64,000 nucleotides of DNA from an uncultured Candidatus Binatia bacterium (GTDB lineage: Bacteria; Desulfobacterota; Binatia; Bin18), in contig OZ241744.1 of NCBI GenBank assembly GCA_965200965.1, positions 3,520,562-3,584,561 of the forward strand, in the 5' to 3' direction. The notes under the pieces are model-generated. The model ran no database searches and was not told the DNA's origin. It saw only the letters and a list, made by a program, of their open reading frames with translations. The position numbers and the translations under genes are program-made. Below are positions 8,200 to 31,902 of the stretch, one piece after another (the first letter of the stretch is position 1; each line of letters starts with the position of its first letter).

Positions 8200-8623
8200 C
8201 TGGCGTGAAAGCCTGTCTGGCTGGTGGGAGGCCATTGTCGCCGGGGCTGCGGCCGCCCCACTCTCCGGCCTCACCCCGGCAGCGTACAATCCGGCTCGCT
8301 ATCCTGCGTCGCTATCGGACCGATAGGGAATGAGTTGGCCGGCGGCCGGTTTAATATCAAAACCGGCCGTGGCGGCATTGTCGATATTGAGTTCCTTGTA
8401 CAAATATTACAACTCTGGTACGATCAGCCTCCGCACTGACTGTGACCAGTCGGGTTGAGGTGCTGGAGAGCGAGGCGCGCAGTTGCCCCTGTTGGCCAGA
8501 CGGATGGGCTATGGTGGCCAAGACGCGGCATCCCGACTGCTGGCCGACTATCATGTCCAGCGGGAGGCCATTCGAGACTGTTACACGCGCTGGTTTGAAA
8601 GGCAGAAAGGACCCGAAGCATGA
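8200..8623 (+). pseudogene. glnE: 3'-terminal remnant of glutamine synthetase adenylyltransferase gene, frameshifted
   Basis: FNIKTGRGGIVDIEFLVQILQL matches the GlnE C-terminal nucleotidyltransferase motif (E. coli [22 protein letters not shown]). The downstream tail LARRMGYGGQDAASRLLADYHVQREAIRDCYTRWFERQKGPEA* is in another frame. Only about 130 codons remain of a roughly 950-codon gene. Confidence 0.5.
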
Positions 8624-10083
8624 GTGACGAGCAGACACCCCCCACCCCGGGAGAAGAGGCAACAGAGGATTTTGCGGCTCTGCTGGCCCAGGAAGAGACG
8701 CAACCTACGCTGCAAACGGGTCACATCGTCAAAGGCAGCGTGGTTCAGATCGGGGAGGACAGCGTCTTTGTTGATGTTGGCGATAAGGGCGAGGGGATTA
8801 TCGCCCGCGCCGAACTGGAGAACGAAGACGGCAGCCTCCAGGTCGAGATCGGAGATGAGCTTGAGGCCACGGTGCTCTCAACCGAGGGTGAAATCCGTCT
8901 GTCCCGTAAACTGCTGAGAGGTATGCAGGCCCGCCAGCAGTTGGAGGCCGCCTTTTCGCACGGTCTGCCGGTTGAGGGGACGGTGAGCGCGGTCATCAAG
9001 GGCGGCTATGAGGTGATGGTCGCCGGTCTGCGAGCCTTCTGTCCGTTTTCTCAGATGGATATCCGTCGGGTCGAGTCCTCGGACGTTTTTCTGAATCGCA
9101 CCCTGGAGTTCCGCGTCACGCGTTACTCCGACAATGGGCGCAATATCGTGGTCTCGCGGCGCCGGTTGCTCGAGGAAGCGGCGGTCAAAGAAGCCGAAGA
9201 ACTCCGCAAGAAAATTGTGCCCGGTGCGGTCTTGCCAGGCACGGTGACATCGCTGACCGACTTTGGGGCCTTTGTCGAGCTGGGGGGCGGAATTCAAGGC
9301 TTAGTGCATGTCTCCGAGCTGTCCCATTCACGGACAGGCAAGCCGGCTGATCTGCTGACGAGCGGTCAGGCGGTGAACGTCAAAGTCCTCAAGGTCAGCG
9401 AGCAGACGGGAAAGATTTCCCTGAGTATGAAAGCGCTTGAGGCAGATCCGTGGGAGCATGTTGCCGCGCAGCTCAAGGCACGTCAGATCGTCGCCGGCCA
9501 AGTCGTGCGCATGGCCGACTTTGGGGCTTTTGTCGAGGTCTTGCCCGGTGTCACCGGCCTGCTGCACATCGGCGAAATCCCGCGCAGCCAGCAGGGGTCG
9601 CTGAAAGACGCGGCCGCTGAGCAGGCGCAGATCACGGTCATGATTCTGAGCATTGACGCCCAAAAGCGCAGGATTGCCCTGGCCTTGGCCCCTGAAGGGG
9701 TGAGCCCCGGTAAACAGCTTGAAGAAAACGTCATCCAAGTCGGCAGTGTGCTGAGCGGCCGGGTTGACCGGGTTGAGCCGTTCGGGGTCTTTGTCCGCCT
9801 CGGGCCCGGACAAACCGGCCTGATTCCCAATCCCGAGATGGGTACGTCGCGCGGTACCGACCATAACAAAGACTTTGGGCCGGACACCGAGATGAAAGTC
9901 CTTGTCTTGGCGGTTGAAGACAACGGGAGGCGGATCAGGCTGTCGCGGTCCAAAGCCCAGGCCCAGGAAGAGCGGACCGAAGCTCAGGCGTATATGAGCG
10001 ATTCTGGGCCGGCCGGACATGGCTTCAGTACCACACTGGGGGATTTGCTGCGGCAGAAGATGAAGAAGCAGGGGAGCTCCTAG
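8620..10083 (+). CDS. S1 RNA-binding domain protein (ribosomal protein S1-like, about 5 S1 domains)
   Basis: Repeated S1 OB-fold signatures (G.V..i.dfGaFV.l.g..GLvHiSEl). Confidence 0.8.
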   Translation: MSDEQTPPTPGEEATEDFAALLAQEETQPTLQTGHIVKGSVVQIGEDSVFVDVGDKGEGIIARAELENEDGSLQVEIGDELEATVLSTEGEIRLSRKLLRGMQARQQLEAAFSHGLPVEGTVSAVIKGGYEVMVAGLRAFCPFSQMDIRRVESSDVFLNRTLEFRVTRYSDNGRNIVVSRRRLLEEAAVKEAEELRKKIVPGAVLPGTVTSLTDFGAFVELGGGIQGLVHVSELSHSRTGKPADLLTSGQAVNVKVLKVSEQTGKISLSMKALEADPWEHVAAQLKARQIVAGQVVRMADFGAFVEVLPGVTGLLHIGEIPRSQQGSLKDAAAEQAQITVMILSIDAQKRRIALALAPEGVSPGKQLEENVIQVGSVLSGRVDRVEPFGVFVRLGPGQTGLIPNPEMGTSRGTDHNKDFGPDTEMKVLVLAVEDNGRRIRLSRSKAQAQEERTEAQAYMSDSGPAGHGFSTTLGDLLRQKMKKQGSS

Positions 10084-12339: not shown

Positions 12340-13167
12340 GTGATTTCAAGAACTGACACCCGTCCGTTCTCCTTTCACCTGGATGAAACCTTTGAAAAGT
12401 ACCTGATCGCCCTGTACCGGCGAAAAGACCTGCTTCTCTACTTGGCGACATCTGGGCTCAAAGCCCAGTACCGTAACACTGCCCTGGGCTATCTGTGGTG
12501 GTTGCTTGACCCTCTGCTCGGGGTGCTGATCTATTATTTTGTGATAGCGGTGGTGTTTCGCCAGGGTGGCCCTGACTATGGGCCCTTTCTGGTCATCGGC
12601 CTGATTGTCTGGCAGTGGTTTGACTCGAGCCTGTCCTTGGCCTGCCGGTCTATCGCTTCCCAGGCCGGTATTATCACCCAGGTGTACCTGCCAAAGGCGA
12701 TTTTTCCGCTTGGCGCAGCCCTGTCGCAGTTGATCAATTTTGGTTTTGGTCTGGCGATTATTGCCCTGTTCGGGATTTTTTTTCAGTTCAGACCCGGCTT
12801 GCCCCTGGTGTGGCTGCCGTATATCATCCTGGTGCAGTTTGTGTTCGTGTCCGCCCTTGGCCTTGTGCTGGCCTATGTGTCGGTGTTTGTCCGTGATGCC
12901 GAGAATGTGACGAGTTATGTGTTGCGGTTGTGGTTCTTTGGCTCGCCGGTGATCTGGTCGGAGGAGGTCTTGGCCGGGCGGGCGGGCTGGATCGTGGAAT
13001 GGAACCCGATGGCGTATTTTCTGGCTGCGTATCGCGCGGTGTTCATGGCCCAGTCGCCCCCGGATTATGGGATTTTAGCCCTCATCGGCGGTCTATCGAC
13101 CCTGCTCCTTGTGTATATGACCTACCATTTCAGCCAGCACGAACATAAGATGATCAAGGTCTTGTGA
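12340..13167 (+). CDS. wzm: ABC-2 type polysaccharide export permease
   Basis: N-terminal YRRKDLLLYLATSGLKAQYRNTALGYLWWLLDPLL signature followed by 6 TM-like segments. The stop overlaps the next gene's start (GTGATG). The GTG start at 12340 is tentative. Confidence 0.8.
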   Translation: MISRTDTRPFSFHLDETFEKYLIALYRRKDLLLYLATSGLKAQYRNTALGYLWWLLDPLLGVLIYYFVIAVVFRQGGPDYGPFLVIGLIVWQWFDSSLSLACRSIASQAGIITQVYLPKAIFPLGAALSQLINFGFGLAIIALFGIFFQFRPGLPLVWLPYIILVQFVFVSALGLVLAYVSVFVRDAENVTSYVLRLWFFGSPVIWSEEVLAGRAGWIVEWNPMAYFLAAYRAVFMAQSPPDYGILALIGGLSTLLLVYMTYHFSQHEHKMIKVL

Positions 13168-14720
13168 TGGCCTCCTTCGCGCCTTCCTCTGCCATTGTCC
13201 GGCCTCAAACGGTACCGCCCGAGGTCCTGCTGCAAGCCTCTGGAGTCGGGGTTGAGTATGTCCTCGGCAACAGACGAGAGGATGTGAAATCGCTGACCCA
13301 TAATCTGTTTCGCCTCCACCGGCGGCAGACCTTCTGGGCCTTGCACGATGTCAACCTTGTCGGCCGCGCCGGCGAGGTGGTGGGCATCATCGGGGCAAAC
13401 GGAGTGGGGAAAACGACGCTGTGTCGGACCCTGTCCGGGCTGCTGCGGCCTGACCGTGGCCGGGTCGAGACCGCCGGCAGGGTGCTGGCCCTGCTGTCCC
13501 TGGGCACGGGTTTCAACCACCAGCTTTCAGGCCGCGAGAACATTTTTCTCAATGGCATGATGCTGGGCGTATCTCAACGGCGTCTCGCCGAACTCTTCCC
13601 CCAGATTGTGGCCTTCTCTGAATTGGAGCGTTTTATTGATCAGCCACTCAAGTCCTACTCGAGTGGGATGGTGGCACGGCTCGGTTTCAGCATTGCCGCC
13701 AGCCTGGATCCCGAGATTCTGATTCTTGATGAAACGCTCAGCACGGGCGATCTGGCCTTCTCCGAGAAAGCCGGGCAGAGGATGCATGAGCTGACCCGGC
13801 AGGCAAAGCTGGTCATTGTCGTGACCCATCGGCTCCCGTTTGTTGAGACCTACTGCACCCGGGCGGTGTGGATTGATGGGGGAATGGTCCGGGCGAGCGG
13901 GTCTGCCCGGGAGGTTGTTGGGCGGTATAGACAGGCGCTTCCGCCCCAGGCTCCCGCTAGGCAGCCCGTCAACCTGCCGGAGACCACCTCCATGCCGGGG
14001 TCTAGGCCGGTCGCTGTTGCCCGTCATCTCGGGGTGCAGTTTGCCTTGCGGCCGGCCGGCACGAATGTCAGGCGGTGGTCGTTATTCAGGAAAAAACCCG
14101 TCTTTGAGGCGCTGCGGGATGTGTCTCTTGAGGTATTTGAGGGGGATATTCTGGGCATCATCGGCCCCAACGGTGCCGGCAAGACAACCCTGTGTCGTGT
14201 CCTCAGCGGCCTGTTACGAGCCGACACCGGCCACATCAGTGTTGCGGGCGACATGAGCGCGCTGCTGACGTTGGGTGTGGGGTTTCACGAGCAACTCAGT
14301 GGGCGGGATAACGTGTATCTTAGCGGCATGATGCTGGGCCTCCAGAAAAAGCGGCTGACCGTTCTATACCCCCAGATTATCAAGTTTGCCGGGCTTCAGG
14401 ACGCCATCCATCTGCCCATCAAGCACTATTCGTCGGGGATGCGGGCCAGGCTCGGCTTCAGTGTCGCAGCCATGATCCAGCCGGATGTGTTCATCATTGA
14501 CGAGGCGCTCAACGCAGGCGATGCCGCCTTCTCCGAGCGGGCCAGCGGTAAGCTCCACGACCTCATCGCCAGCGCCAAAGCGGTGATGGTCGTGACACAC
14601 AACCTGGACTTTGTTATACGGGTGTGTACCCGGGCCGTGTGGCTGGAGGCCGGCGCGGTGCGGTTTAGTGGCAGCCCGGCCGAGGCGGTAGACCTGTATC
14701 GGCAGACGGCCCGGTGCTGA
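13164..14720 (+). CDS. wzt: polysaccharide ABC exporter ATPase with two fused nucleotide-binding domains
   Basis: Two complete NBDs. NBD1: GANGVGKTT, YSSGMVARLGF, ILILDETLSTGD, VVTH. NBD2: GPNGAGKTT, YSSGMRARLGF, VFIIDEALNAGD, VVTH. No C-terminal carbohydrate-binding module. Confidence 0.8.
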   Translation: MMASFAPSSAIVRPQTVPPEVLLQASGVGVEYVLGNRREDVKSLTHNLFRLHRRQTFWALHDVNLVGRAGEVVGIIGANGVGKTTLCRTLSGLLRPDRGRVETAGRVLALLSLGTGFNHQLSGRENIFLNGMMLGVSQRRLAELFPQIVAFSELERFIDQPLKSYSSGMVARLGFSIAASLDPEILILDETLSTGDLAFSEKAGQRMHELTRQAKLVIVVTHRLPFVETYCTRAVWIDGGMVRASGSAREVVGRYRQALPPQAPARQPVNLPETTSMPGSRPVAVARHLGVQFALRPAGTNVRRWSLFRKKPVFEALRDVSLEVFEGDILGIIGPNGAGKTTLCRVLSGLLRADTGHISVAGDMSALLTLGVGFHEQLSGRDNVYLSGMMLGLQKKRLTVLYPQIIKFAGLQDAIHLPIKHYSSGMRARLGFSVAAMIQPDVFIIDEALNAGDAAFSERASGKLHDLIASAKAVMVVTHNLDFVIRVCTRAVWLEAGAVRFSGSPAEAVDLYRQTARC

Positions 14721-14746
14721 GCGCGCACGGAAAGCGAGAGGACAGA

Positions 14747-17700
14747 ATGCAGATCATCGTTCTGGGGATGCACCGGTCGGGCACATCCGTCCTGACCCGG
14801 CTGCTCAATCTGATGGGGGCCTCTGTTGGGGTGGAAGGGAACCTGATAGAACCCACCGGGGAGAACGCCAAAGGCTATTGGGAACGCCTCGATATCTATG
14901 CGCTCCATCAAGAGGTGCTGACGGCTGTTGGAGCGGACTGGTACAAGGTCAGTCAGTTTGAACCCGGTCGCCTGAGTGCTGAGCAGCGCGCGGCTTTTAG
15001 TGCTCGGGCGCGGAACATTCTCTCTAAGCTTGATGCCCATCGTCCCTGGGTGCTGAAAGATCCCAGGCTGTGTGTGTTGCTGCCGCTGTGGCAGGAGTTA
15101 CTGGAAGCTCCGATCTATGTGCATATCTGGCGCAACCCACTCGAGGTGGCCCAATCGCTGCGCACCTGGAAGGGCTTCCCGATCCGATTTGGGATAGCGT
15201 TGTGGGAGCAGCATAATTTGGCCGCCCTGCACCATACTCGTGGCTTCCCCCGCTTGCTGGTGAGTCACCGGGACCTGATGCAGCGCCCGGTTCAGACTGT
15301 TCGGACCTTCTATAAGGACCTCGTAGCCCTAGGGGTCCCCAGGCTCGGCTGTCCGGGTGAGCGAGAGATTACATCTTTTATTGAGGCTGCTCTGTACCGG
15401 GAGCGGGGTGGCATCAAGTGCCAGAAGCAGTTCGTTAATCAAGCCCAAGCCAAGCTGCTGCGGGCTTTGGAAAAGCGGCGGGTTCTGCAATGGAAGTCCC
15501 TGCCAGCACTCTCAGCGGGTAGCCACGAGACTCTGGTTGAATATGAGGAACGGGCGGCGGCAGAGGCGCGGCGGGCGGCGGAGGTTGAAGCGTTAGAGGG
15601 GCGCGTAGGGGCGGCGGAGGCGGCGCGGGCGGCGGAGGTAGGGGAGTTACAGGGGCAGGTGGCGGCGGCAGAGGCGCGGCGGGCGGCGGAGGTTGAAGCG
15701 TTAGAGGGGCGCGTAGGGGCGGCGGAGGCGGCGCGGGCGGCGGAGGTAGGGGAGTTACAGGGGCAGGTGGCGGCGGCAGAGGCGCGGCGGGCGGCGGAGG
15801 TTGAAGCGTTAGAGGGGCGCGTAGGGGCGGCGGAGGCGGCGCGGGCGGCGGAGGTAGGGGAGTTACAGGGGCAGGTGGCGGCGGCAGAGGCGCGGCGGGC
15901 GGCGGAGGTTGAAGCGTTAGAGGGGCGCGTAGGGGCGGCGGAGGCGGCGCGGGCGGCGGAGGTAGGGGAGTTACAGGGGCAGGTGGCGGCGGCAGAGGCG
16001 CGGCGGGCGGCGGAGGTTGAAGCGTTAGAGGGGCGCGTAGGGGCGGCGGAGGCGGCGCGGGCGGCGGAGGTTGAAGCGTTAGAGGGGCGCGTAGGGGCGG
16101 CGGAGGCGGCGCGGGCGGCGGAGGTAGGGGAGTTACAGGGGCAGGTGGCGGCGGCAGAGGCGCGGCGGGCGGCGGAGGTTGAAGCGTTAGAGGGGCGCGT
16201 AGGGGCGGCAGAGGCGCGGCGGGCGGCGGAGGTTGAAGCGTTAGAGGGGCGCGTAGGGGTGGCGGAGGCGGCGCGGGCGGCGGAGGTAGGGGAGTTACAG
16301 GGGCAGGTGGCGGCGGCAGAGGCGCGGCGGGCGGCGGAGGTTGAAGCGTTAGAGGGGCGCGTAGGGGCGGCGGAGGCGGCGCGGGCGGCGGAGGTAGGGG
16401 AGTTACAGGGGCAGGTGGCGGCGGCAGAGGCGCGGCGGGCGGCGGAGGTTGAAGCGTTAGAGGGGCGCGTAGGGGCGGCAGAGGCGCGGCGGGCGGCGGA
16501 GGTTGAAGCGTTAGAGGGGCGCGTAGGGGTGGCGGAGGCGGCGCGGGCGGCGGAGGTAGGGGAGTTACAGGGGCAGGTGGCGGCGGCAGAGGCGCGGCGG
16601 GCGGCGGAGGTTGAAGCGTTAGAGGGGCGCGTAGGGGCGGCGGAGGCGGCGCGGGCGGCGGAGGTAGGGGAGTTACAGGGGCAGGTGGCGGCGGCAGAGG
16701 CGCGGCGGGCGGCGGAGGTTGAAGCGTTAGAGGGGCGCGTAGGGGCGGCAGAGGCGCGGCGGGCGGCGGAGGTAGGGGAGTTACAGGGGCAGGTGGCGGC
16801 GGCAGAGGCGCGGCGGGCGGCGGAGGTTGAAGCGTTAGAGGGGCGCGTAGGGGCGGCAGAGGCGCGGCGGGCGGCGGAGGTTGAAGCGTTAGAGGGGCGC
16901 GTAGGGGCGGCGGAGGCGGCGCGGGCGGCGGAGGTAGGGGAGTTACAGGGGCAGGTGGCGGCGGCAGAGGCGCGGCGGGCGGCGGAGGTTGAAGCGTTAG
17001 AGGGGCGCGTAGGGGCGGCAGAGGCGCGGCGGGCGGCGGAGGTTGAAGCGTTAGAGGGGCGCGTAGGGGCGGCAGAGGCGCGGCGGGCGGCGGAGGTTGA
17101 AGCGTTAGAGGGGCGCGTAGGGGCGGCGGAGGCGGCGCGGGCGGCGGAGGTAGGGGAGTTACAGGGGCAGGTGGCGGCGGCAGAGGCGCGGCGGGCGGCG
17201 GAGGTTGAAGCGAGTGAGCAGACGGCGGCAACGGAACGTGAGGCGATCATCGCCCTGTTCCACAATTCGCATAGCTGGCGCATAGCCGCTCCACTCCGAG
17301 TCATAGGGCGAGTCTGGCGAGCGATAGGCTGGCGGGGCCGCGGGCTTTTGAGCCAGATCGCCCGACCAATCTATTATCGAGCCCCCCTCCCGTTTGCTAC
17401 CAAGGTCTGGCTCAAGGAAAGCCTTTTCACCGTTGCCCCGCTGCTGTTCCGGCATACTATTGCCTACCGGGACTGGACGCAGAGCCGGGCAGCGGAGGTG
17501 ATAGCATTACGCGAAGAGTTAGCAACGAGTGAAGCGCGGCGGGCGGCCGAGGAGGAAGCGCGGCGGGCGGCCGAGGAGGAAGCGCGGCGGGCGGCCGAGG
17601 AGGAAGCGCGGCGGGCGGCCGAGGAGGAAGCGCGGCGGGCGGCCGAGGAGGAAGCGCGGCGGGCGGCCGAGGAGGAAGCGCGGCGGGCGGCCGAGGAGGA

Positions 17701-20700
17701 AGCGCGGCGGGCGGCCGAGGAGGAAGCGCGGCGGGCGGCCGAGGAGGAAGCGCGGCGGGCGGCCGAGGAGGAAGCGCGGCGGGCGGCCGAGGAGGAAGCG
17801 CGGCGGGCGGCCGAGGAGGAAGCGCGGCGGGCGGCCGAGGAGGAAGCGCGGCGGGCGGCCGAGGAGGAAGCGCGGCGGGCGGCCGAGGAGGAAGCGCGGC
17901 GGGCGGCCGAGGAGGAAGCGCGGCGGGCGGCCGAGGAGGAAGCGCGGCGGGCGGCCGAGGAGGAAGCGCGGCGGGCGGCCGAGGAGGAAGCGCGGCGGGC
18001 GGCCGAGGAGGAAGCGCGGCGGGCGGCCGATACGACTTTATCCGCCTTGTACGTCGCGGAAGCGGCGGACTCGATCAATCCGAAAACTCTGCCCGTGAAA
18101 TTGATCGCGTTTTACTTGCCGCAATACCATCCGATTCCTGAAAACGACGAGTGGTGGGGGACAGGCTTCACCGAGTGGACGAACGTCACCAAAGCTAGGC
18201 CGAACTACGAAGGGCATTATCAGCCACGTCGACCCGCGGACCTGGGCTTCTACGACCTGCGGGTGCCCGAGGTGATGGAGCAGCAGGCCGCTCTGGCGCG
18301 TCGCTACGGCCTCTCTGGGTTCTGTTACTACTACTATTGGTTCGAAGGGAAACGGCTGCTGGAAATGCCGCTGGAGCGCATGTTAGCGACCGGCCAGCCG
18401 GACTTTCCTTTCTGCCTGGCGTGGGCCAACGAGAACTGGACCCGCCGCTGGGATGGTACCGAACGCGAGATTCTGCTCGCCCAGCACCACAGCGACGCGG
18501 ACGATATGGCTGTCATCCGTGATCTGATGCGGTATTTCCGACATCCCAACTACATCCGCATCAACGGCAAGCCCTTGCTCCTGATCTATAGAATTGTCTT
18601 ATTTTCCGATATCCGGCGCACGGTGACGCGCTGGCGGGAGGTGTGTCAACGGGAGGGGATTGGCGACATCTACCTAGCCATGAACGCGACATTTGAATAC
18701 GTCGGTGCCGATGTAGACCCTGCTGTCTACGGCCTGGATGCCGTTGTTGAACATCCTCCCCATTACAGGGAGACGCCTATTGAAATACCTGGCCGACGAC
18801 TCAATCCAGACTATGTTGGGCGGGTTGTTGATTACTCAGAGTTCGCCAAGGTTTTTTTTGAAAGAGAATTCCCGGACCATGTCATAAGATTCCGCGGGGT
18901 GATGTCAAGTTGGGACAACACGCCTCGTCAGCAGAATAGGGCTAATATTTTTCACGGGTCCGACCCGGAGGCTTACCAGGCTTGGCTCCAAGCTGCCATC
19001 CGGCAGACAACTACCCGGTACTCGGGGGACGAGCGCTTGGTGTTTATCAACGGCTGGAACGAATGGGGAGAAGGATCGTACCTGGAACCGGATCGCAGAT
19101 ATGGGTTCGCCTACCTGGAGGCGACCCGAGCGGCACTCCTGGCCACGGGCGCGAAATTGCTGCCTGTCACTGTCCGGGAAGACCCGACGGGGTCTCCTGA
19201 AACGGTCGCTTGTCCTCGAGTCTCAATTATCGTCCCGAACTATAACCATGAAAGATTCCTCAAACAACGGCTCGAAAGCATCTACTCGCAGCAGTTTACG
19301 GATTTTGAGGTCATCATCCTTGACGATGCATCCACCGATGGAAGCATGGACATTATTGCGCAATATCAGGAGCGGTTTTCGAACAAGACAAGGGTGATCC
19401 GCAACCAGAAGAACTCCGGGAACCTGTTTTCACAGTGGCTCGCCGGACTCGACTTGGCTCAAGGAGAGCTTGTCTGGATCGCGGAAAGCGATGATTTCGC
19501 AGATGAGAATTTCCTGAGAGACATGGTTGCGGAGTTCTCTGACGAGGCCGTACTTCTGGCCTATGGAGACACCCAATATGTTAATACGGAAGGGGAGTTC
19601 GTTCCGGGCATATCCTCCTATCTTGAAGGCACTGGCTTCAATCAATGGAAAGACTCCTACAAAAAGTCTTCCTGGAGCGAATTCAATGGTCCCTTTGGCG
19701 TGAAGTGCATTATCGCCAATGTGTCTGGGACCGTTTTCAGAAAGCCTCTCCTTTCACCCCAGGAGCGCGAAACATTGGTCAAGTTTTTGATCTGTGGCGA
19801 TTGGTATTTCTACAGCCTGATTGCAAGAGGGGGATATATATCCTTTGTCAAGAGCGCGAAGAACCATTTCCGCCTTCGTGACGACAGTAACTCGAGGAGT
19901 TCCTATGGCGGAAGACAGTTTTACAGTGAACATTTCGACATCCTATCAAATATCAAGAAGATCTACGGCGTTTCCGAGGCTATCGTCGAGCGGCATTTTC
20001 ATGCGTTAGAGGAGGTGTATGCCGCCTGTGTGGAGCCGGGGCGATTCAGTCTTCACGAGGTCTTTCCATACCACGAGATAGTGGAGAAGCAAGATGGTTT
20101 CTTGCGGATATGCATTGCGAGTTTGGGCTTCTATTCTGGAGGCGGCGAGGTCGTGTCCATCGACCTTGCGAACAGGTTGCGTGCTTTGGGCCACAGTGTG
20201 ACCTTCTTTGCCTTGGGATGGGAACTTGGTCAATTCAGTCAGGAACAGCGGAGGCGACTGCGTAGCGACATCCCCGTATGCTATCGGGAGACCATGCAGG
20301 GCACTTTCCAGGACCTGCAAGAGGAACTCGGTTGCCAGATTCTGAATACGCACTGCATCAGCGTGGATCTCTTCTTATTTGAGGAGATGTACAACCCGCT
20401 GGGTCTTTGGGTACTGACCCAACACGGCTCATACGAGGCCCTTTTGAGTCCCGCGAATGGCCAGGCTGCGGATTTTTTCAGAAACTACGAGAAAGCCTTT
20501 CAGTTTGTGGATTTTGTCAAAAACAAGGTGGATCACTGGGTACTCGTGTCGAAAAAAAGCGTAGACATATTGTCATCTATGGGTATAGGCTCGACAGCCT
20601 CCACACACATACCAAATGGAGTCCCTGATCCCGTGAACAGCCTTTCTCTTAGGAAAATCAGCCGAGACGCCTTGAATATTCCAGCCGAGGCATTTGTTTT

Positions 20701-21325
20701 CATTATCGCTTCCAGAGCAATCCCGGAAAAAGGATGGGAACACGCCATTTGCGCAATGGAGGCAACTCAAAAGCAAGCAAACCAAGAACTGTATTTGATC
20801 CTGCTCGGGGAGGGTCCAGAAGCCGATCGGCTCCGTAACGAGAACATCGATCAACACCATCTTCGTTTTCTCGGTTATCAAGCCGATGTAGCGAGTTTCA
20901 TTCGGCTCGCCGACGCCGGGGTGATGCCAACATATTATCAGGGAGAAACCAGCTCGCTTTTTGCGATGGAATGTCTCATGGAGGGGATTCCCGTTATTAT
21001 CAGCGACGTATCCGATTGCCGGGATACGGTATCCGACGCCACCGGGAGGAGCGCCGGCATTGTGATCAGGCCCAAGAAATCGTCTGCGACATTTGAGAGC
21101 GATCTCTCCAAGGCAATGATTTGCCTTGTGAATTCACGCCAGGCTTACCGGGAGATGTGTTCCGTGGCGGTCAGGATGAAGCAAAAATTTCTCCTGGATA
21201 CAAATGTCCAGCGCTATGAAGAACTCTTTTCCAAACTCCAATCAGGCGCTTCTTGTAACTTGAACTCAAGAAAGCAAGCAGATTGGGAGGAGATGGCAGA
21301 GGTGAATAATGCGAAATCTGCGTAG
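14747..21325 (+). CDS. 2,192-aa multidomain glycan assembly protein: sulfotransferase, two tandem-repeat helical arrays, WbsX-type domain, GT2 and GT4
   Basis: ATG at 14747 after GAGAGGA. Domains in order: sulfotransferase with PAPS loop GMHRSGTS and VLKDPR (to about 15470); 18-aa repeats 15557-17212; linker with SWRIAAPLR; 8-aa repeats 17531-18030; WbsX-type domain ([39 protein letters not shown], about 18090-19190); GT2 ([24 protein letters not shown], about 19210-19900); GT4-type ([16 protein letters not shown], about 20100-21250). TAG at 21323-21325. Confidence 0.85.
   Translation: [2192 protein letters not shown]
15557..17212 (+). repeat. about 30.7 tandem copies of a 54-bp (18-aa) unit in two alternating variants (108-bp super-unit)
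   Basis: Variant A is [18 protein letters not shown] and variant B is [18 protein letters not shown]. The 108-bp period was verified (gcgcgtagggg at 15601 and 15709). A 270-bp block AAB'AB is duplicated (gcgtaggggt at 16251 and 16521). The array is in frame within the giant CDS. Confidence 0.95.
17531..18030 (+). repeat. about 20.8 perfect tandem copies of a 24-bp (8-aa, EARRAAEE) unit
   Basis: gaagcgcggcgggcggccgaggag repeats without any visible substitution from 17531, and the last copy is truncated at 18030. In frame within the giant CDS. Confidence 0.95.
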
Positions 21326-21593
21326 AGCAGAGGGTCAACGGGCTGACAGCGGGCTGATATTGCGCCCGGCTTGCGCACGTCACCAGATAATCTCCGATCA
21401 GGCATGGACTGATTTGTTGATCCGCAGCATTAGTGAATCAGTCATTGACGGAACCCGCTTTCCGGCGTTTTCGAAAGAGGAGCTACAAGATGTGGGTTGG
21501 GGTCGACACCTTCGTTTTTTGGCGTGATATCGACCCTAATAACCGGGTTGCGTTTTTATCGGCACCACGAACACAATCCGCTATATCGACTGG

Positions 21594-22739
21594 ATGGCTT
21601 CTCCGGACAGGGAAATAAACGAATTGAATCTCCGGTACCTGAAGATCGCAAGAGACGCCGCCGGAGATATTGATGTGTTGAAAGAGAGATTTAACGCCGG
21701 TCAGCATGTGTTTATTCCGAAGTGCCCCAGACCCAGATCTCAAACCCTTGGAACATACGAGGAAGCGATTATTTCAGCAAAGCACATAAAGTCCAGATGG
21801 TGTTCGTTCTTTTCCGTCCACGAATATATCGACGATCCAGAGCCATGCGACGAAACCGTGGCCATTTTGTTAGAAAGCGCTCTCCAGATAAAAGAAAATC
21901 AGCGTCCAGATTCGGGTACATCAGCGAAGAAGCCTGGGAATCGGGAGAGAGCAATACATAAACTCATCAACCTGCCCGCACTGCGGACCGCTTTTGAAAG
22001 TTTCAGCGGGAATACGCCTTTCAACCATTGCGTGTGCGATGGATTTTTTCGGAGCGAGATCGTCCACGCCCTCGAACAAGACTTTCCCCCCTACGAAGAT
22101 ACAATCTGGCACGAGTACGACAACGCCGTTGAGAAGAAAAAGTCGACAAATATCTGGAACTTTTTTCCTCCTACAACCTATAGGATATTCTCTGTCCTCA
22201 CTAGTCCAGAGTTTCTGCGTGTCATTGCCGAATTGACCGGCATCGTTCCCCTCTTTGCCGACCCGGGCCTCAACAGCGGCGGGTGGCATATCCTCAAAAA
22301 AGGCGGGAAGCTCAACCCTCATCTCGATTTCAATATCCATCCGAAATCAGGCTTGCAGCGAAAACTTAATCTCGTCGTTTTTCTGCCCCTGGAGTGGCGG
22401 TCGGAGTGGGGCGGTGAACTCGGCTTCTGGGAGGCAGACCAGGCAAAAAGTGCCCCGGGCCGGCTGCTCAAAACTATTCCTCCCCAATTCAATCGGGCCG
22501 TGTTCTTTGACACCACCCAGCAGAGTTGGCACGGCCTGTCCAGCCCGGTCCAGTGCCCAGAGGGTGTTTTTCGCAAAAGTCTGTCGGTCTGCTATCTCAC
22601 CGACCCCCCACCTGAAACAGACCACAGGGGCAAAGCGCACTTTGCCCCGACACAGGAACAAGAGGGCGACCGAGCGGTGGCCGAGTTGATTCAAAAGCGC
22701 GCCTCAGTCTCGACCGCATCGTCGGTCTACAAGCCCTGA
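21594..22739 (+). CDS. 2OG-Fe(II) oxygenase family protein with an unrelated N-terminal extension of about 130 aa
   Basis: The C-terminal 250 aa carry PFNHCVCDGFF, the HxD-type motif GGWHILKKGGKLNPHLDF, a distal SWHG and RKSLSVCY. The N-terminal part and the true start are uncertain. Confidence 0.65.
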   Translation: MASPDREINELNLRYLKIARDAAGDIDVLKERFNAGQHVFIPKCPRPRSQTLGTYEEAIISAKHIKSRWCSFFSVHEYIDDPEPCDETVAILLESALQIKENQRPDSGTSAKKPGNRERAIHKLINLPALRTAFESFSGNTPFNHCVCDGFFRSEIVHALEQDFPPYEDTIWHEYDNAVEKKKSTNIWNFFPPTTYRIFSVLTSPEFLRVIAELTGIVPLFADPGLNSGGWHILKKGGKLNPHLDFNIHPKSGLQRKLNLVVFLPLEWRSEWGGELGFWEADQAKSAPGRLLKTIPPQFNRAVFFDTTQQSWHGLSSPVQCPEGVFRKSLSVCYLTDPPPETDHRGKAHFAPTQEQEGDRAVAELIQKRASVSTASSVYKP

Positions 22740-27944: not shown

Positions 27945-28649
27945 ATGGCAGAACGATTTTTTTCTGAGGATGAGCTGTGCGAGATGGGCAAACGCTCGGT
28001 CGATCGGCTGACCGAGGCGATTGAGGCCGGGGAGAGCGAGGCGGCCAAACGTATCGGTCAGCGGATGTATAAGGAGTTTCTGAGTATGCACGACCTGTAC
28101 CGTAACTGGACGACGGCTATGCTGAGCGAGATCGGCCGCCGATTCGGGGATGAGGTGCTTGATGAGATCATGACCGCGGGGGTCAAAGCTTGGTGGCTGC
28201 CCAACCTGGACAAGATGCCCCAAGGGGCGGATAAGCTGTCCCAGCGGATTAAGATGTTCGTGGCCGGCCTGCGCGGCCATCTCCAGCCGATGGAGATCAC
28301 AGAGGACGACGACAAGGTCGTCATTCAAATGCAGCCCTGCGGCAGCGGTGGACGGCTGGTTCTGGAAGGCAGATATGACGGGCCGGACGGCTTTCTGAAG
28401 GTTGAGAAACCCCAGCGAATGACCTATAACCGGGCCAACTTCCCGGTCTACTGCGCCCACGAACCTCCGATGGAGTTGGTGGACATTGAGAAGAACGGCA
28501 AGCCGTTTGTAGTGGTTGAGCCGGCCGCGGTGTTGGGCAAGCAGCACTGCTCGTTCATTATCTACAAAGACGCGAGCAAGGTGCCGGCCAAATACTACGA
28601 ACGGCTGGGTTTGCAGAAGCCGGAAACAGCCGAGGAGAAGGCCGATTGA
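27945..28649 (+). CDS. hypothetical protein
   Basis: ORF of 234 aa from MAERFF. Coding-like composition, with Cys/His-containing motifs QPCGSGGR and PVYCAHEPP. Family not recognised. Confidence 0.6.
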   Translation: MAERFFSEDELCEMGKRSVDRLTEAIEAGESEAAKRIGQRMYKEFLSMHDLYRNWTTAMLSEIGRRFGDEVLDEIMTAGVKAWWLPNLDKMPQGADKLSQRIKMFVAGLRGHLQPMEITEDDDKVVIQMQPCGSGGRLVLEGRYDGPDGFLKVEKPQRMTYNRANFPVYCAHEPPMELVDIEKNGKPFVVVEPAAVLGKQHCSFIIYKDASKVPAKYYERLGLQKPETAEEKAD

Positions 28650-28711
28650 CGCACGGCAAGATGATGACTGAGGGAAGAGAGCATCGTTCATTGTGGAAAA
28701 AGGAACAGGCT

Positions 28712-29079
28712 ATGATGCAAGCGGGAGTGGGGCTGTCAACCCACAAGGACACATCCGAGGCGGCGCGGGAGGCAAGCCAGACCGACCTCAGCCGGGCCGG
28801 GATTGATCGCGCGGACTTGGCCCTCGTCTTTGCCACAGCCGATCATGGAGCCGGCTACAGCCGGCTCTTGCGCACGGTGCAGACCTCCCCCAGACCCCCA
28901 ATGTCTGGGCTGTGTATATTGCCCAGTATATCGGCGGTGTGCCGATTGTCGGGTTTTTCTCGGGGTGTGAGATTGCGCCCATCCAGCGGGTCGAATCTCT
29001 GCTCCAGTACACTACTGGCGTGCTTGTCCTGGCTGGTGAACGCTCAGCGCCGTTCCACGAGGCGGGGAGCGACCTATGA
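28712..29079 (+). pseudogene. FIST-domain protein remnant (internal deletion plus frame change)
   Basis: A FIST_N-like start MMQAGVGLSTHKDTSEAAREASQTDLSRAGIDRADLALVFATADHGAGYSRLL is joined, out of frame, to a FIST_C-like end VPIVGFFSGCEIAPIQRVESLLQYTTGVLVLAGER. About 120 codons remain where roughly 380 are expected. Confidence 0.5.
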
Positions 29080-29282
29080 GCAGAGACGAGTTCATTCAGA
29101 AAATTGCCAAGGGTATGGACCTGCCTGTTGCTTTGCTCAAACGGCTGACCGCGCCGCGCGCCCAGGGTGACACATAAGACAGCGGCTGTGGCTGTTGCGT
29201 ATGCCGCGCATGGACGAAATTGAGGAGTTTCACCTTGAAGTGCGCTTTGCCTCCTCCGGCTGGCGCACCGCCCTGCGCTCGT

Positions 29283-30533
29283 TCATTGAGGACTAGGAAG
29301 GTGCGTCCCGTCTCGGCCGGTGCAGATCGCTTGGTTGTGCTTCAGGTATTCCAGCAGGGCTTCCGCAGCCCACTGATGGCCGGCAGGGTTCCAATGCGTG
29401 TCATGGGCCCAACGGGACTCCTGCCACACAATGCCCCGGCTGGCCAGGTAGTCATTCAGGTTGACGATGGGAATCTCCCGGTCCGTGGCCAGGGAAGTCA
29501 CAAGCGTCCTCATCTGGCGATCCAACTGGATCTGGAGCAGGAGCAGCGCAAAATTATCATGGGCGGCGCGTTGCTTGAATTGATCCAAGGCGAAAGCTGT
29601 GAAGTCCACGGCGTCTTTGAAGGCAGACGGGGGGTCGTCCATAAAGAATTCGTCGGCCAATTCTACACTCCCTATATAGTCGTCGGCAGGTTGCCAGTCC
29701 CCGAATGCATCACGGTACTGGGGATACAGGTTCTTGAGCGCTTCTAGGCGAGCAAACACTCCCATGGCCCACAGGTTGTTATCGGGGGGAAGTAGCTGAA
29801 GGTCGTGGGCTAGGATATGCGAGGACCTGAATAGCGAGGATATTTTTCCCATCAGAGTGTCTGCAGAAGGCTGAGATTTCCGGAGAGGCATCTTTTCCGG
29901 CTCATGGTAGGGTGGTATCAGCATGATCGTTCCGTTGAGGCTTCTTTTCGCATAGGAACGCGGCATCCTGTCCGGCCTCCAGCCCATTGCCGCTGCTGTC
30001 AGAAGGTTGGAATTGTCGACCAAATCGTTGTAGGTGACGGCCAGGACCACCAGCTTCGGACTCAGCCACCGCGCGTATGCGTCGTACAACCGCAGTTGAG
30101 CGACTTGCCCGGTGGCGTTCACCCCGAAGGCCGAGGTGGTTACATTCAGATGGGGCAACTCTCGGGCAGCGAGTTCTTCGAGCCGAACATGGGATTTGTC
30201 CGCAATGAACACTTCGTATGCCGCTACGAAGGAATCACCGATCAGGGAGATGTGGCAACTCCTGGCGGCTTGCTCAGGGCTGATGGGTTCACGGTCGAGA
30301 AAACCCAGGCTGTTGGTCCGAGATACAGTCCAGTAATCAAGTCTGTTCGTATAGTTCACCTCTGCGTTGGGTTCAAGACCAATGCCCACCCCCGGCCGGA
30401 AACGTATGGGCAGAAACGAGTCTGTGAACGGCATCGTCTGCCAGTGGTAGAGTTCTTTCGCAAGCAGAATCCCGCCCACGCCCACGATGATGAACATGGT
30501 GTTCCAGCCGATCACTCGCAACAGAAGGGCCAT
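29283..30533 (-). CDS. membrane-anchored SGNH/AlgJ-like hydrolase or O-acyltransferase (catalytic motifs intact)
   Basis: ATG at 30533. N-terminal TM helix, block I ISLIGDSF, and a C-terminal AHDTHWNPAGH (AlgX/AlgJ-type D-x-H-W). Confidence 0.65.
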   Translation of the reverse strand: MALLLRVIGWNTMFIIVGVGGILLAKELYHWQTMPFTDSFLPIRFRPGVGIGLEPNAEVNYTNRLDYWTVSRTNSLGFLDREPISPEQAARSCHISLIGDSFVAAYEVFIADKSHVRLEELAARELPHLNVTTSAFGVNATGQVAQLRLYDAYARWLSPKLVVLAVTYNDLVDNSNLLTAAAMGWRPDRMPRSYAKRSLNGTIMLIPPYHEPEKMPLRKSQPSADTLMGKISSLFRSSHILAHDLQLLPPDNNLWAMGVFARLEALKNLYPQYRDAFGDWQPADDYIGSVELADEFFMDDPPSAFKDAVDFTAFALDQFKQRAAHDNFALLLLQIQLDRQMRTLVTSLATDREIPIVNLNDYLASRGIVWQESRWAHDTHWNPAGHQWAAEALLEYLKHNQAICTGRDGTHLPSPQ

Positions 30534-30564
30534 GTTCCCTTTTAGGCTGTGTATATTCAATTCT

Positions 30565-31740
30565 TCACCCAGTGCAGATCGTCGGGTTGTGCTCCAGGTA
30601 TTCCAGCAGGGCTTCCGCAGCCCACTGATGGCCGTCGGGGTTCCAGTGCCTGTTATGGGGCCACCGGGCCCCCTGCGGCGCAATGCCCCGGCTGGTCAGG
30701 TAGTCATCCAGGCTGACGATGGGAATCTCCCGGTCCGTGGCCAGGGAAGTCACAAGCACATTCAGTCGGAAATCCGGCAGCTGGTCGGGCAACAGTATCA
30801 GCAGGGCAAACCCATCACGGGCGGCACGTTGCTTGAATTGATCCAAGGCGAAAGCTGTGAAGTCCACGGCGTCTTTGAAGACAGGCGGGGGGTCGTCCAC
30901 AAAGAATTCGTCGGCCAATTCTGCACTCGACGAGTCACCGTCACGAGGTTGCCAGTCCCCGAATGTGTCACGGTACTGGGGATACACGCTCTTAAGCAGT
31001 TCCACTCGCCTACGATACTGTTGTTGATTTCCTGCGGGGCCGGAGGGCTCGGATTCGAGAGGCTCATAGTACTTGTCAAAGTTCCATTCTGGATGAGAAA
31101 CGGGCGGTGTCAGCTTGATCGTTCCGTCTGGGCTTCTTTCCGCATAGAAATACGGCATCCTGTCCGGCCCCCAGCCCTTTAGCACTGCTGTCAGGAGCTT
31201 GGAATTGTCGACCAAATCGTCGCGAGAAAATTCCAGGACTACCAGCTTCGGGGTCAGCCTGCGTGCGTATACATCGTAGAGCGCCAGTTGATTGATCTGC
31301 CCGGTGGCCCCTAGCCCGAAGGCCGATGTGGTCACATCCAGATTGGACAGTCGCTGAAGAGCGAGTTCTTCGAGCCGAACTTGGAGTTTGTCCGCAATGG
31401 GCACTGACGGTGCCTCCACATTGCTGCCGAGGATGGTGATGTGACAAGTCCCGGCGGCTCGCTCAGGACTGATGGGTTCACGGTCGAGAAAACCCAGGCT
31501 GTTGGTCCGGGATATGGTCCAGAAATTGTGCCCGTCCGTCCAGCGCACCTCCTCGTTGGGCTCAAGAATATAGCCCACCTCCGGAACGAAACGCATGGGC
31601 CGCTGTTGGTCTGTGAACGGCGTCTCCGGACGGAAGTGGAGTTCTCTGGTAAGCAGAGTTAAGCCCACGCCTACGGCTATCCAGAATGCGCTCCAGCCAA
31701 CTGTTCGCACTATACGGGAGGGGGGTGAGGAATCCGTCAT
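30565..31740 (-). CDS. paralog of 29283-30533 with degenerate catalytic motifs
   Basis: ATG at 31740 after GGAGG. Same architecture, but block I reads ITILGSNV and the C-terminal motif reads PHNRHWNPDGH, so both the Ser and the Asp are lost. Confidence 0.65.
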   Translation of the reverse strand: MTDSSPPSRIVRTVGWSAFWIAVGVGLTLLTRELHFRPETPFTDQQRPMRFVPEVGYILEPNEEVRWTDGHNFWTISRTNSLGFLDREPISPERAAGTCHITILGSNVEAPSVPIADKLQVRLEELALQRLSNLDVTTSAFGLGATGQINQLALYDVYARRLTPKLVVLEFSRDDLVDNSKLLTAVLKGWGPDRMPYFYAERSPDGTIKLTPPVSHPEWNFDKYYEPLESEPSGPAGNQQQYRRRVELLKSVYPQYRDTFGDWQPRDGDSSSAELADEFFVDDPPPVFKDAVDFTAFALDQFKQRAARDGFALLILLPDQLPDFRLNVLVTSLATDREIPIVSLDDYLTSRGIAPQGARWPHNRHWNPDGHQWAAEALLEYLEHNPTICTG

Positions 31741-31902
31741 TTCATAGTACCTCCGCTCAAAATTGGTCTTTACAATCATAGAGAGTCTGTGAGCGAACTG
31801 TCAATACCCCAAGGCACGGACCAGAATGATCAGCCACGCCGCGGTAGTGACTCAGATGCCCTTGTTCGTCCCCTCCAGGGCGGCGCGGTGCCTCAGGCTG
31901 AC

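Follow-up and report, generated by a model that had tools for sequence, protein, structure and literature searches.

A predicted tandem-repeat helix as a candidate chain-length ruler in a putative sulfotransferase-fold glycan polymerase of an uncultured Candidatus Binatia bacterium

A 64,000-nucleotide stretch of the genome of an uncultured Candidatus Binatia bacterium (contig OZ241744.1, positions 3,520,562 to 3,584,561; hereafter the window) contains a gene for a 2192-residue protein (14747..21325, plus strand, as are the domains, arrays and operon genes given below), in which an N-terminal domain with a predicted sulfotransferase fold is separated from glycosyltransferase domains by 31 in-frame units of a 54-bp tandem repeat (array 1). 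In order, the gene encodes the sulfotransferase domain, array 1, a conserved module here called LINK, a second tandem repeat (array 2), a WbsX domain, and a GT2 and a GT4 glycosyltransferase domain. We consider it probable, by analogy, that array 1 serves as the spacer, and molecular ruler, of a glycan polymerase and terminator combined in one polypeptide, which would work with a Wzm/Wzt ATP-binding cassette (ABC) exporter and set the chain length of a surface glycan. Array 1 is read as a ruler arm because the protein shares the architecture of WbdD and WbbB. A coiled-coil ruler in a terminator–polymerase is a known kind of system. New, as far as checked, are the sulfotransferase-fold putative terminator, a candidate ruler of 31 near-identical non-heptad units that is several times longer than that of any homologue examined, a strain-variable array 2 beyond the putative anchor, and a Wzt with two nucleotide-binding domains (NBDs) and no carbohydrate-binding module.

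Results

Repeat structure of array 1

Array 1 (15557..17230) comprises 30 copies of a 54-bp unit and one partial unit, encodes 558 residues as 18-residue repeats and is proposed to form a helical ruler. Tandem Repeats Finder (TRF) returned it as a single array (15553..17212) whose periods are 108, 162 and 270 bp, with 88–92% matches and zero indels, and in-frame cutting from position 15557 gave 30 full 18-residue units followed by a 31st that diverges after 36 nt, at 17212. Unit A, AAEARRAAEVEALEGRVG, is present 17 times and unit B, AAEAARAAEVGELQGQVA, nine times, the DNA of each being identical throughout; the remaining full units are two copies of a B variant with one C>T change (b), a B-head/A-tail hybrid at unit 10 (h) and an A-head/B-tail hybrid at unit 23 (k). 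Along the array the units run ABABABABA h B A A b A B A A b A B A k A A B A A A B. Twelve of the 54 sites distinguish unit A from unit B, and the breakpoint of both hybrids falls between sites 14 and 30. Units 12–16 (16151..16420) recur as units 17–21 (16421..16690), a 270-bp duplication in which counterpart units are identical in DNA sequence.

The original prediction, made from the letters of the window, had described a 54-bp array of two unit types with hybrids, strict alternation over the first nine units and an exact 270-bp duplication; TRF and in-frame cutting recovered the array, its two unit types and the hybrids, and the unit order bears out both the alternation and the duplication. 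Its diagnostic Gly-to-Val change needs correction, as the C>T in variant b turns GCG into GTG in the first codon of the unit and is hence Ala-to-Val. What such a length module would measure was not part of that prediction; the setting of the array, as the spacer of a putative terminator–polymerase fusion beside a Wzm/Wzt exporter, supplies a candidate. The view that the array preserves the reading frame and is no on/off switch also holds, the 54-bp unit being a multiple of 3 nt inside an open reading frame (ORF). A phase-variable contingency locus was accordingly considered and rejected: the units of both arrays (54 and 24 bp) are multiples of 3 nt and lie inside the ORF, so that no on/off phase switch results, and an allele with six fewer 24-bp units (below) is still in frame. 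Two minus-strand ORFs also run over array 1, of 598 aa (15435..17231) and 621 aa (15439..17304). They were rejected as genes and are regarded as by-products of the repeat, because it is the plus frame that joins conserved domains. Across the window only two tandem arrays score at least 80, array 1 and array 2, both within the 2192-aa gene.

Predicted structure of array 1

For structural analysis, residues 1–396 (the sulfotransferase domain and the first seven units) were modelled with AlphaFold as a monomer from a 50-sequence alignment. One unbroken helix, H257–395, ran through the seven modelled units, with a predicted local distance difference test score (pLDDT) mostly above 90 that fell only towards the artificial end. 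The helical assignment had originally been made with caution over the two Gly residues per unit, and the model predicts helix through the first seven units despite them. On this basis a continuous helix of ~585 residues is predicted ahead of LINK, 558 of them from the 54-bp repeats; at 0.15 nm per residue the array would be ~84 nm long. Pfam domain order and the AlphaFold model together place an extended predicted helix between the sulfotransferase domain and the LINK/polymerase part, as in the ruler class, a comparison that concerns helicity.

On a wheel of 100° per residue, A2, L13, V17 and V10 lie within an 80° arc with R6 among them, and the core spacing is 4-4-3-4-3 (7+11). The 7+11 spacing expected from the 18-residue period is thus seen as a stripe of A2, R6, V10, L13 and V17. 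Ala and Gly make up the whole of the opposite face (A7, G18, E/G11, A4, G15, A8 and A1, plus A12 in the A unit), position E/G11 being counted within it. The hydrophobic moment (µH) of the 18-residue unit is 0.10, and Fourier peaks at 3.0, 3.6 and 4.5 residues are similar in height; the 3.6-residue peak is therefore not singled out, and periodicity alone gives a coiled coil no support. With an 18/5 periodicity (3.6 residues per turn) a bundle would run essentially straight, as originally proposed; a coiled coil held together weakly, a bundle in which both faces take part and a largely single helix are all possible. A 108-residue stretch of array 1 returned nothing useful among PDB sequences.

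Array 1 in other strains

The 90% cluster of the C-terminal part of the protein holds seven proteins, including P0246 (2192 aa, the window) and P0245 (2144 aa), encoded at the same locus on an independent 3.6-Mb contig (L002). Between the window and L002 the flanks are 99.75–99.9% identical, and the non-repeat parts of the two proteins differ at 5 residues. Array 1 comprises 31 units in an intact ORF in both, in the order ABABABABAhBAAbABAAbABAkAABAAAB in the window and aBAhhBABAB...AB in L002. Because an array so differently ordered is found in a strain with flanks this similar, array 1 is being reshuffled. The two alleles differ in length at array 2, with 20 exact copies in the window and 14 in L002, a difference of 6 copies equal to 48 aa or ~7 nm of helix. 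The copy-number variation originally expected of the 54-bp array was thus not found in these two long-contig alleles, both of which have 31 units; the length difference sits in the 24-bp array. As for the claim of ongoing unequal recombination, the footprints of recombination are present (identical copies, hybrids, the duplication and the reordered strain allele), and unequal crossover is one of two explanations for the reshuffling, length-preserving gene conversion accounting for it equally well. The equal length of array 1 in the two resolved alleles fits either selection on length or such conversion.

Six short-read scaffolds of the locus (L001 and L083–L087) show array 1 as two to four units or as a 100-N gap, with the gene split into separate calls. 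These short arrays are most simply explained as assembly collapses; truly short alleles may be among them. The same scaffolds hold unit variants that are absent from the window (RRVAEV, EAEARR and EVKALEG).

The sulfotransferase domain and its relatives

The mechanical ORF of the gene has 2203 codons (14714..21325) and opens with a GTG at 14714. The true start is very likely the ATG at 14747 (MQIIV...), because it matches database protein P0246, to which the window's protein is identical, and all homologues, which start MQ(I/L)IV. The N-terminal domain (14747..15556), the predicted chain terminator, matched Pfam Sulfotransfer_3 (PF13469) with 29.4 bits against a cut-off of 27, and no sequence similarity to any PDB chain was detected. 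Given this weak sequence signal, the fold was assigned using AlphaFold and Foldseek. The model of residues 1–396 had a mean pLDDT of 92.9, and the top 33 Foldseek matches in the PDB were all sulfotransferases dependent on 3'-phosphoadenosine-5'-phosphosulfate (PAPS), led by the CurM sulfotransferase (4gbm, E 1e-5) and including TPST1/2 and SULTs. Within the GMHRSGTS motif, H9, R10, G12, T13 and S14 are invariant among 50 homologues, as are W101, K104, P106 and R107. The domain is thus predicted, from model and motif, to have a sulfotransferase fold with a P-loop-like 5'-phosphosulfate-binding motif.

A search with the domain gave 4458 homologues. Among the 120 best listed, most are 300–490 aa long, and those inspected consist of the domain and a coil. 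In 80 loci from species-representative genomes, about half have Wzm/Wzt within 10 kb of the sulfotransferase domain, and many of the domains form the N-termini of 900–2000-aa proteins with glycosyltransferases; the best identity in this genome scan was 57%. No close relative of the domain was found in JGI (Joint Genome Institute) metagenome contigs. The WbsX–GT2–GT4 block occurs with the same sulfotransferase in P0122, P0123, P0140, P0198 and others, and elsewhere with methyltransferase domains in the sulfotransferase position. We read the sulfotransferase family as behaving like a terminator family because of its domain–coil layout, its Wzm/Wzt neighbours, its glycosyltransferase fusions and the methyltransferase swaps.

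The distance from the sulfotransferase domain to LINK is 30–312 aa in genomic homologues, compared with 572 aa here. The closest relative outside the species, P0247 (L088, 8001..10505), is 64% identical in the sulfotransferase domain and 52% around LINK, and its operon encodes a DegT-family aminotransferase, ManC, Wzm, a double-NBD Wzt (516 aa) and the sulfotransferase–LINK–WbsX protein. The coil of P0247 is only ~35 aa, including a 7-aa duplication (TSEVAHL TSEVAHL), and array 2 is absent from it, on which grounds sequence comparison indicates that both arrays are lineage-specific expansions. In-frame DNA repeats directly behind the sulfotransferase domain were found in 16 of 83 ORFs, mostly with periods of 7, 14, 21 or 28 aa and also of 11/22, 17, 45 or 80 aa; the spacers of P0122, P0123 and P0236 are built from unrelated 14- or 42-aa units. 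No repeat-bearing homologue examined approaches 31 copies.

LINK and array 2

LINK (17231..17530, ~100 aa) directly follows array 1 and consists of an amphipathic cationic helix, SxSW(R/K)xxAPLR, and the motif YRxxPLPxxxKxxLKxxLFxxxPxLFRHTxxYRxW; its sequence contains FHNSHSWRIAAPLRVIGRVWRAIGWRGRG and then YYRAPLPFATKVWLKESLFTVAPLLFRHTIAYRDW. It had no sequence match in Pfam, NCBIfam or the PDB, and it is conserved in the homologues inspected, in each directly behind a coil. A single-sequence search of 1.84 billion representatives gave 79 clusters at E<=1e-3, in which LINK lies mostly mid-protein in proteins of 600–2000 aa. The first helix (residues 843–858) has a µH of 0.47, a mean hydrophobicity of 0.65 and a charge of +4 to +5, and is predicted to be helical; the predicted helices of LINK are H52–86, H91–104 and H113–121. 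Many standalone homologues of the sulfotransferase domain end in a similar SW(R/K)I helix. By analogy, LINK is predicted to be a membrane-proximal anchor or a polymerase junction.

Array 2, (EEARRAAE)n, starts 300 bp beyond array 1 in the same gene, between LINK and the polymerase domains (17531..18030; 24 bp × 20.8, 100% identical by TRF). Its composition is 60 E, 60 A and 40 R in 160 residues, with 0.86 acid–base pairs (i/i+3 and i/i+4) per residue, and AlphaFold modelled it as one helix, H123–316, of ~190 residues (~25 nm) at pLDDT 92–97. Charge pairs, the lack of a hydrophobic seam and the continuous predicted helix are the signature of an ER/K single-alpha-helix (SAH)-like spacer. Domains of the ER/K SAH type include the lever extensions of myosin VI and myosin X. 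Array 2 resembles them in being composed only of E, A and R, with dense i/i+3 and i/i+4 pairs, no hydrophobic seam and a long predicted helix; it differs in being bacterial, in lying within a glycan synthase and in being encoded by a 100% identical, strain-variable 24-bp array. Where array 2 sits, homologues carry a P/S/T-rich linker of ~40 aa. In most homologues LINK and WbsX are 110–134 aa apart, in a few 165–176 aa and in one 40 aa, and array 2 adds ~150 aa here.

Polymerase domains

Downstream of array 2, the WbsX (GH99-like) domain (18101..19126; ORF residues 1130–1471) matched Pfam PF14307 over its full length (9.3e-134). The core of the GT2 glycosyltransferase domain, as delimited by Pfam, lies at 19223..19615 (PF00535, 1.2e-25; ORF residues 1504–1634), and its sequence matches in the PDB include chondroitin synthase, TarS-like GT2 enzymes and others. 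The GT4/GT1 (GT-B) glycosyltransferase domain lies at 20138..21118 (PF13439, 9.5e-10, and PF00534, 2.4e-17; ORF residues 1809–2135). Between 14001 and 22000 the G+C content forms a mosaic, with ~76% in the arrays, 51–54% in the glycosyltransferase part and 60–65% in the flanks, and with ~57% in the wzm region. This pattern is consistent with a horizontally acquired glycan cluster combined with repeats of GC-rich codons.

Exporter and neighbouring genes

A Wzm/Wzt exporter is encoded directly upstream of the 2192-aa gene in the same direction, an arrangement kept in L001, L002 and L083–L088. The first gene of the operon (12340..13167) encodes a wzm-like ABC-2 permease of 275 aa (Pfam ABC2_membrane, 9.9e-12), whose NCBIfam matches, the Wzm/RfbD galactan permease and KpsM, both fell under the curated cut-offs. 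The wzt-like gene (13164..14720) encodes an ATPase of 518 aa with two fused NBDs, seen as two ABC_tran stretches in Pfam. Each half was matched by the TagH and Wzt/RfbE models of NCBIfam and carries Walker A, signature and Walker B motifs, and the halves are 52% identical to each other.

The downstream neighbour (21594..22739, plus strand) encodes a 2-oxoglutarate (2OG)-Fe(II) oxygenase (PF13640, 1.1e-15). Its position is shared by L001, L002 and L083–L087, and a terminator-like hairpin (21531..21550) lies between it and the 2192-aa gene; whether it is part of the system is uncertain. About 10.5 kb downstream of array 2 (~28600..31800), identity to L002 falls from 99.9% to ~96%, with indels, and in the same comparison blocks cross-match between neighbouring GDSL-lipase-like ORFs at 29283..30683 and at 30565..31779, a pattern suggestive of recombination between these paralogues. 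Ribosomal protein S1 (8620..10083) is only 63–68% identical to its nearest relatives in named lineages (Methylomirabilota, Ca. Binatia and Thermodesulfobacteriota) and 86–90% identical to metagenomic proteins. An Rfam scan of the 64-kb window found nothing.

Discussion

To our knowledge, coiled-coil glycan rulers are established in only a few enterobacterial O-antigen systems, by means of engineered insertions and deletions. A comparable principle is known for protein assemblies: in phage tape-measure proteins and the type III secretion needle ruler YscP, the number of residues sets the size of the assembly, and internal duplications change that size. The likeness to the role proposed for array 1 is that the length of an elongated segment sets the length of a product; the difference is that protein assemblies are measured there, with no glycan involved, and that sequence and mechanism are unrelated.

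Among terminated-chain glycans exported by ABC transporters, coil length acts as the ruler in O9a and O12, and only chains that reach the terminator are capped (PMC11231755). The polymerase modules of these systems are membrane-proximal, whether part of the same protein, as in WbbB and O7 ORF6, or recruited to it, as in WbdD/WbdA, and in characterized terminator systems the carbohydrate-binding module of Wzt recognizes the cap (PMC11231755). WbdD itself forms a trimer via a helical bundle and has a C-terminal domain of ~250 aa, residues 460–708 (PMC3482155). Chain length can also be set with no terminator, as in Klebsiella pneumoniae O2a, where it depends on transporter-to-synthase stoichiometry (PMC11231755).

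Among single-chain enzymes, a close parallel in layout is WbbB of K. pneumoniae O12 and Raoultella terrigena, in which an N-terminal terminator, matched here by a predicted one, a long helical spacer and C-terminal polymerizing glycosyltransferases likewise make up one polypeptide, and which is encoded with a Wzm/Wzt exporter (PMC11231755). It differs in that its terminator is a GT99 β-Kdo transferase, whereas a PAPS-sulfotransferase fold takes this place in the window protein; here, moreover, the spacer consists of 558 aa of near-identical 18-residue repeats, the polymerase domains are set off from the spacer by LINK and a second repeat helix, and a second NBD replaces the carbohydrate-binding module of Wzt. 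WbdD of Escherichia coli O9a and K. pneumoniae O3 shares the succession of catalytic domain or domains, coil and an amphipathic helix, which in WbdD is membrane-associated and lies in the region that recruits the polymerase (PMC3482155, PMC11231755). Many standalone homologues of the window's sulfotransferase domain have that same layout, with a coil and a C-terminal SW(R/K)I helix. In contrast to the fused protein described here, however, WbdD is a kinase–methyltransferase terminator separate from the WbdA polymerase, and its entire C-terminal domain of ~250 aa compares with ~585 aa of predicted helix before LINK. In ORF6 of K. pneumoniae O7 a terminator, a coil and two GT2 modules are combined in one protein, with further enzymes being separate; its terminator is a methyltransferase-kinase, and no tandem-repeat spacer is reported for it in the available part of the source (PMC11231755). 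Literature searches found neither a sulfotransferase terminator nor tandem-repeat copy number in glycan rulers; an earlier bioinformatic listing of the former is possible.

Read by analogy with WbdD and WbbB, LINK would tether the protein to the inner membrane on its cytoplasmic side, where the glycosyltransferase domains would add sugars to the non-reducing end of an undecaprenyl-linked glycan. [quoted passage not shown] Array 2 may serve as a semi-rigid leash whose length sets how far the polymerase can swing from the anchor. Both arrays keep the reading frame, and their repeats match one another fully or almost fully at the DNA level, so that recombination could lengthen, shorten and reshuffle them with the enzyme left intact, and chain length would become a trait that is inherited and can be adjusted quantitatively. 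The analysis shows the gene order, the repeat structure, the strain differences and the modelled folds and helices; that LINK anchors the protein to the membrane, that sulfation is terminal, that the rod oligomerizes and that chain length depends on copy number are all steps that we infer by analogy. In its most specific form the proposal is of a tunable ruler, in which an anchor is flanked by a ~84-nm non-heptad terminator arm and a ~25-nm single-alpha-helix leash and copy number dials the modal length of a sulfate-capped polysaccharide, differing between strains; this version is offered tentatively and may well be too specific.

Several observations weigh against reading array 1 as a ruler. 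The Wzt here has no carbohydrate-binding module, with no match to Wzt_C or a similar model in Pfam or NCBIfam and with the second NBD in its place. A coupling of export to capping is therefore unsupported, and export may not be cap-gated, as a Wzt of this kind has no cap-reading module. Sulfation could take place along the chain, the terminal position having been assigned by analogy, and no PAPS-synthesis gene was seen nearby, no search having been aimed at one. The 18-residue unit is weakly amphipathic (µH 0.10), its putative core includes an Arg and it contains two Gly, so that coiled-coil oligomerization is putative. A second long helix between anchor and polymerase is a geometry with no characterized counterpart; none of the homologues examined offers a precedent for an 84-nm ruler, which could have arisen by runaway neutral expansion. 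The equal unit counts come from two strains only and do not separate selection on length from gene conversion, and short-read polishing could have changed the unit order in either assembly.

The closest competitor, which we regard as rather unlikely, is that array 1 is a passive oligomerization or scaffold helix, a neutral runaway expansion of an ancestral coil of ~35 aa, with chain length set in some other way such as an O2a-like stoichiometry. A coil of ~35 aa suffices in the closest relative, the near-perfect DNA identity of the units indicates that the expansion is recent, the unit is weakly amphipathic, and both the missing carbohydrate-binding module of Wzt and the O2a precedent (PMC11231755) would fit. 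A passive helix, however, would not lead one to expect that two strains retain an unbroken ORF across 1.66 kb of recombinogenic repeat and agree in unit count although the units have been reshuffled, nor that the spacer is located precisely where established rulers are, between a terminator-type domain and a module predicted to be membrane-proximal. Independent tandem-repeat spacers also recur across the family, which suggests that length is an evolving trait. It is less probable still that the sulfotransferase is a decorating enzyme, which would sulfate internal residues or another acceptor while the array tunes the sulfation pattern or the reach. What is established of the domain is its fold, no cap-reading carbohydrate-binding module was found in the exporter, and bacterial polysaccharides with internal sulfate exist, for example the capsule of Cobetia marina. 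There is, however, no obvious need for tens of nanometres between a decorating enzyme and a polymerase, and on the same polymerase block the sulfotransferase is replaced by methyltransferase domains, a known terminator chemistry.

Two further explanations concern the array itself. That its copy number, order or frame is an artefact of assembly or polishing is very improbable: although the short-read scaffolds of the locus show two to four units or a 100-N gap, and polishing can disturb the order of repeats, 31 in-frame units are found in two independent contigs of >3.6 Mb with conserved domains flanking them in the same frame, and every collapsed copy is from a short-read scaffold, in which repeats are expected to collapse. 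A disordered low-complexity linker, or a surface variable antigen like the repeats of streptococcal M protein, is scarcely credible. The array is of low complexity, Ala, Glu, Arg and Gly being abundant and each unit having two Gly, yet it is predicted to form a continuous helix at pLDDT >90, the protein opens directly with the sulfotransferase domain, leaving no room for a signal peptide, and the array is flanked by enzyme domains whose nucleotide-activated donors are used in the cytoplasm. A repeat antigen, whether secreted or at the surface, was accordingly rejected, there being no signal peptide and the flanking domains being those of cytoplasmic enzymes.

If array 1 is indeed a ruler, the locus suggests that such rulers may be built and retuned in nature by tandem duplication. 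Only the spacer, of all parts of the protein, varies wildly among relatives, from ~35 aa to 558 aa, with unrelated repeat units in independent lineages, and array 2 already differs between two otherwise almost identical strains. Short-read assemblies collapse or break the gene, and its true architecture is therefore visible only in long contigs. Should the reading be true, this would be the first case known to us with a sulfate cap and a non-heptad rod, and the protein could perhaps be used as a scaffold to produce polysaccharides of a set length. Were chain length to follow copy number, the system would offer a ready-made natural series for testing the ruler model.

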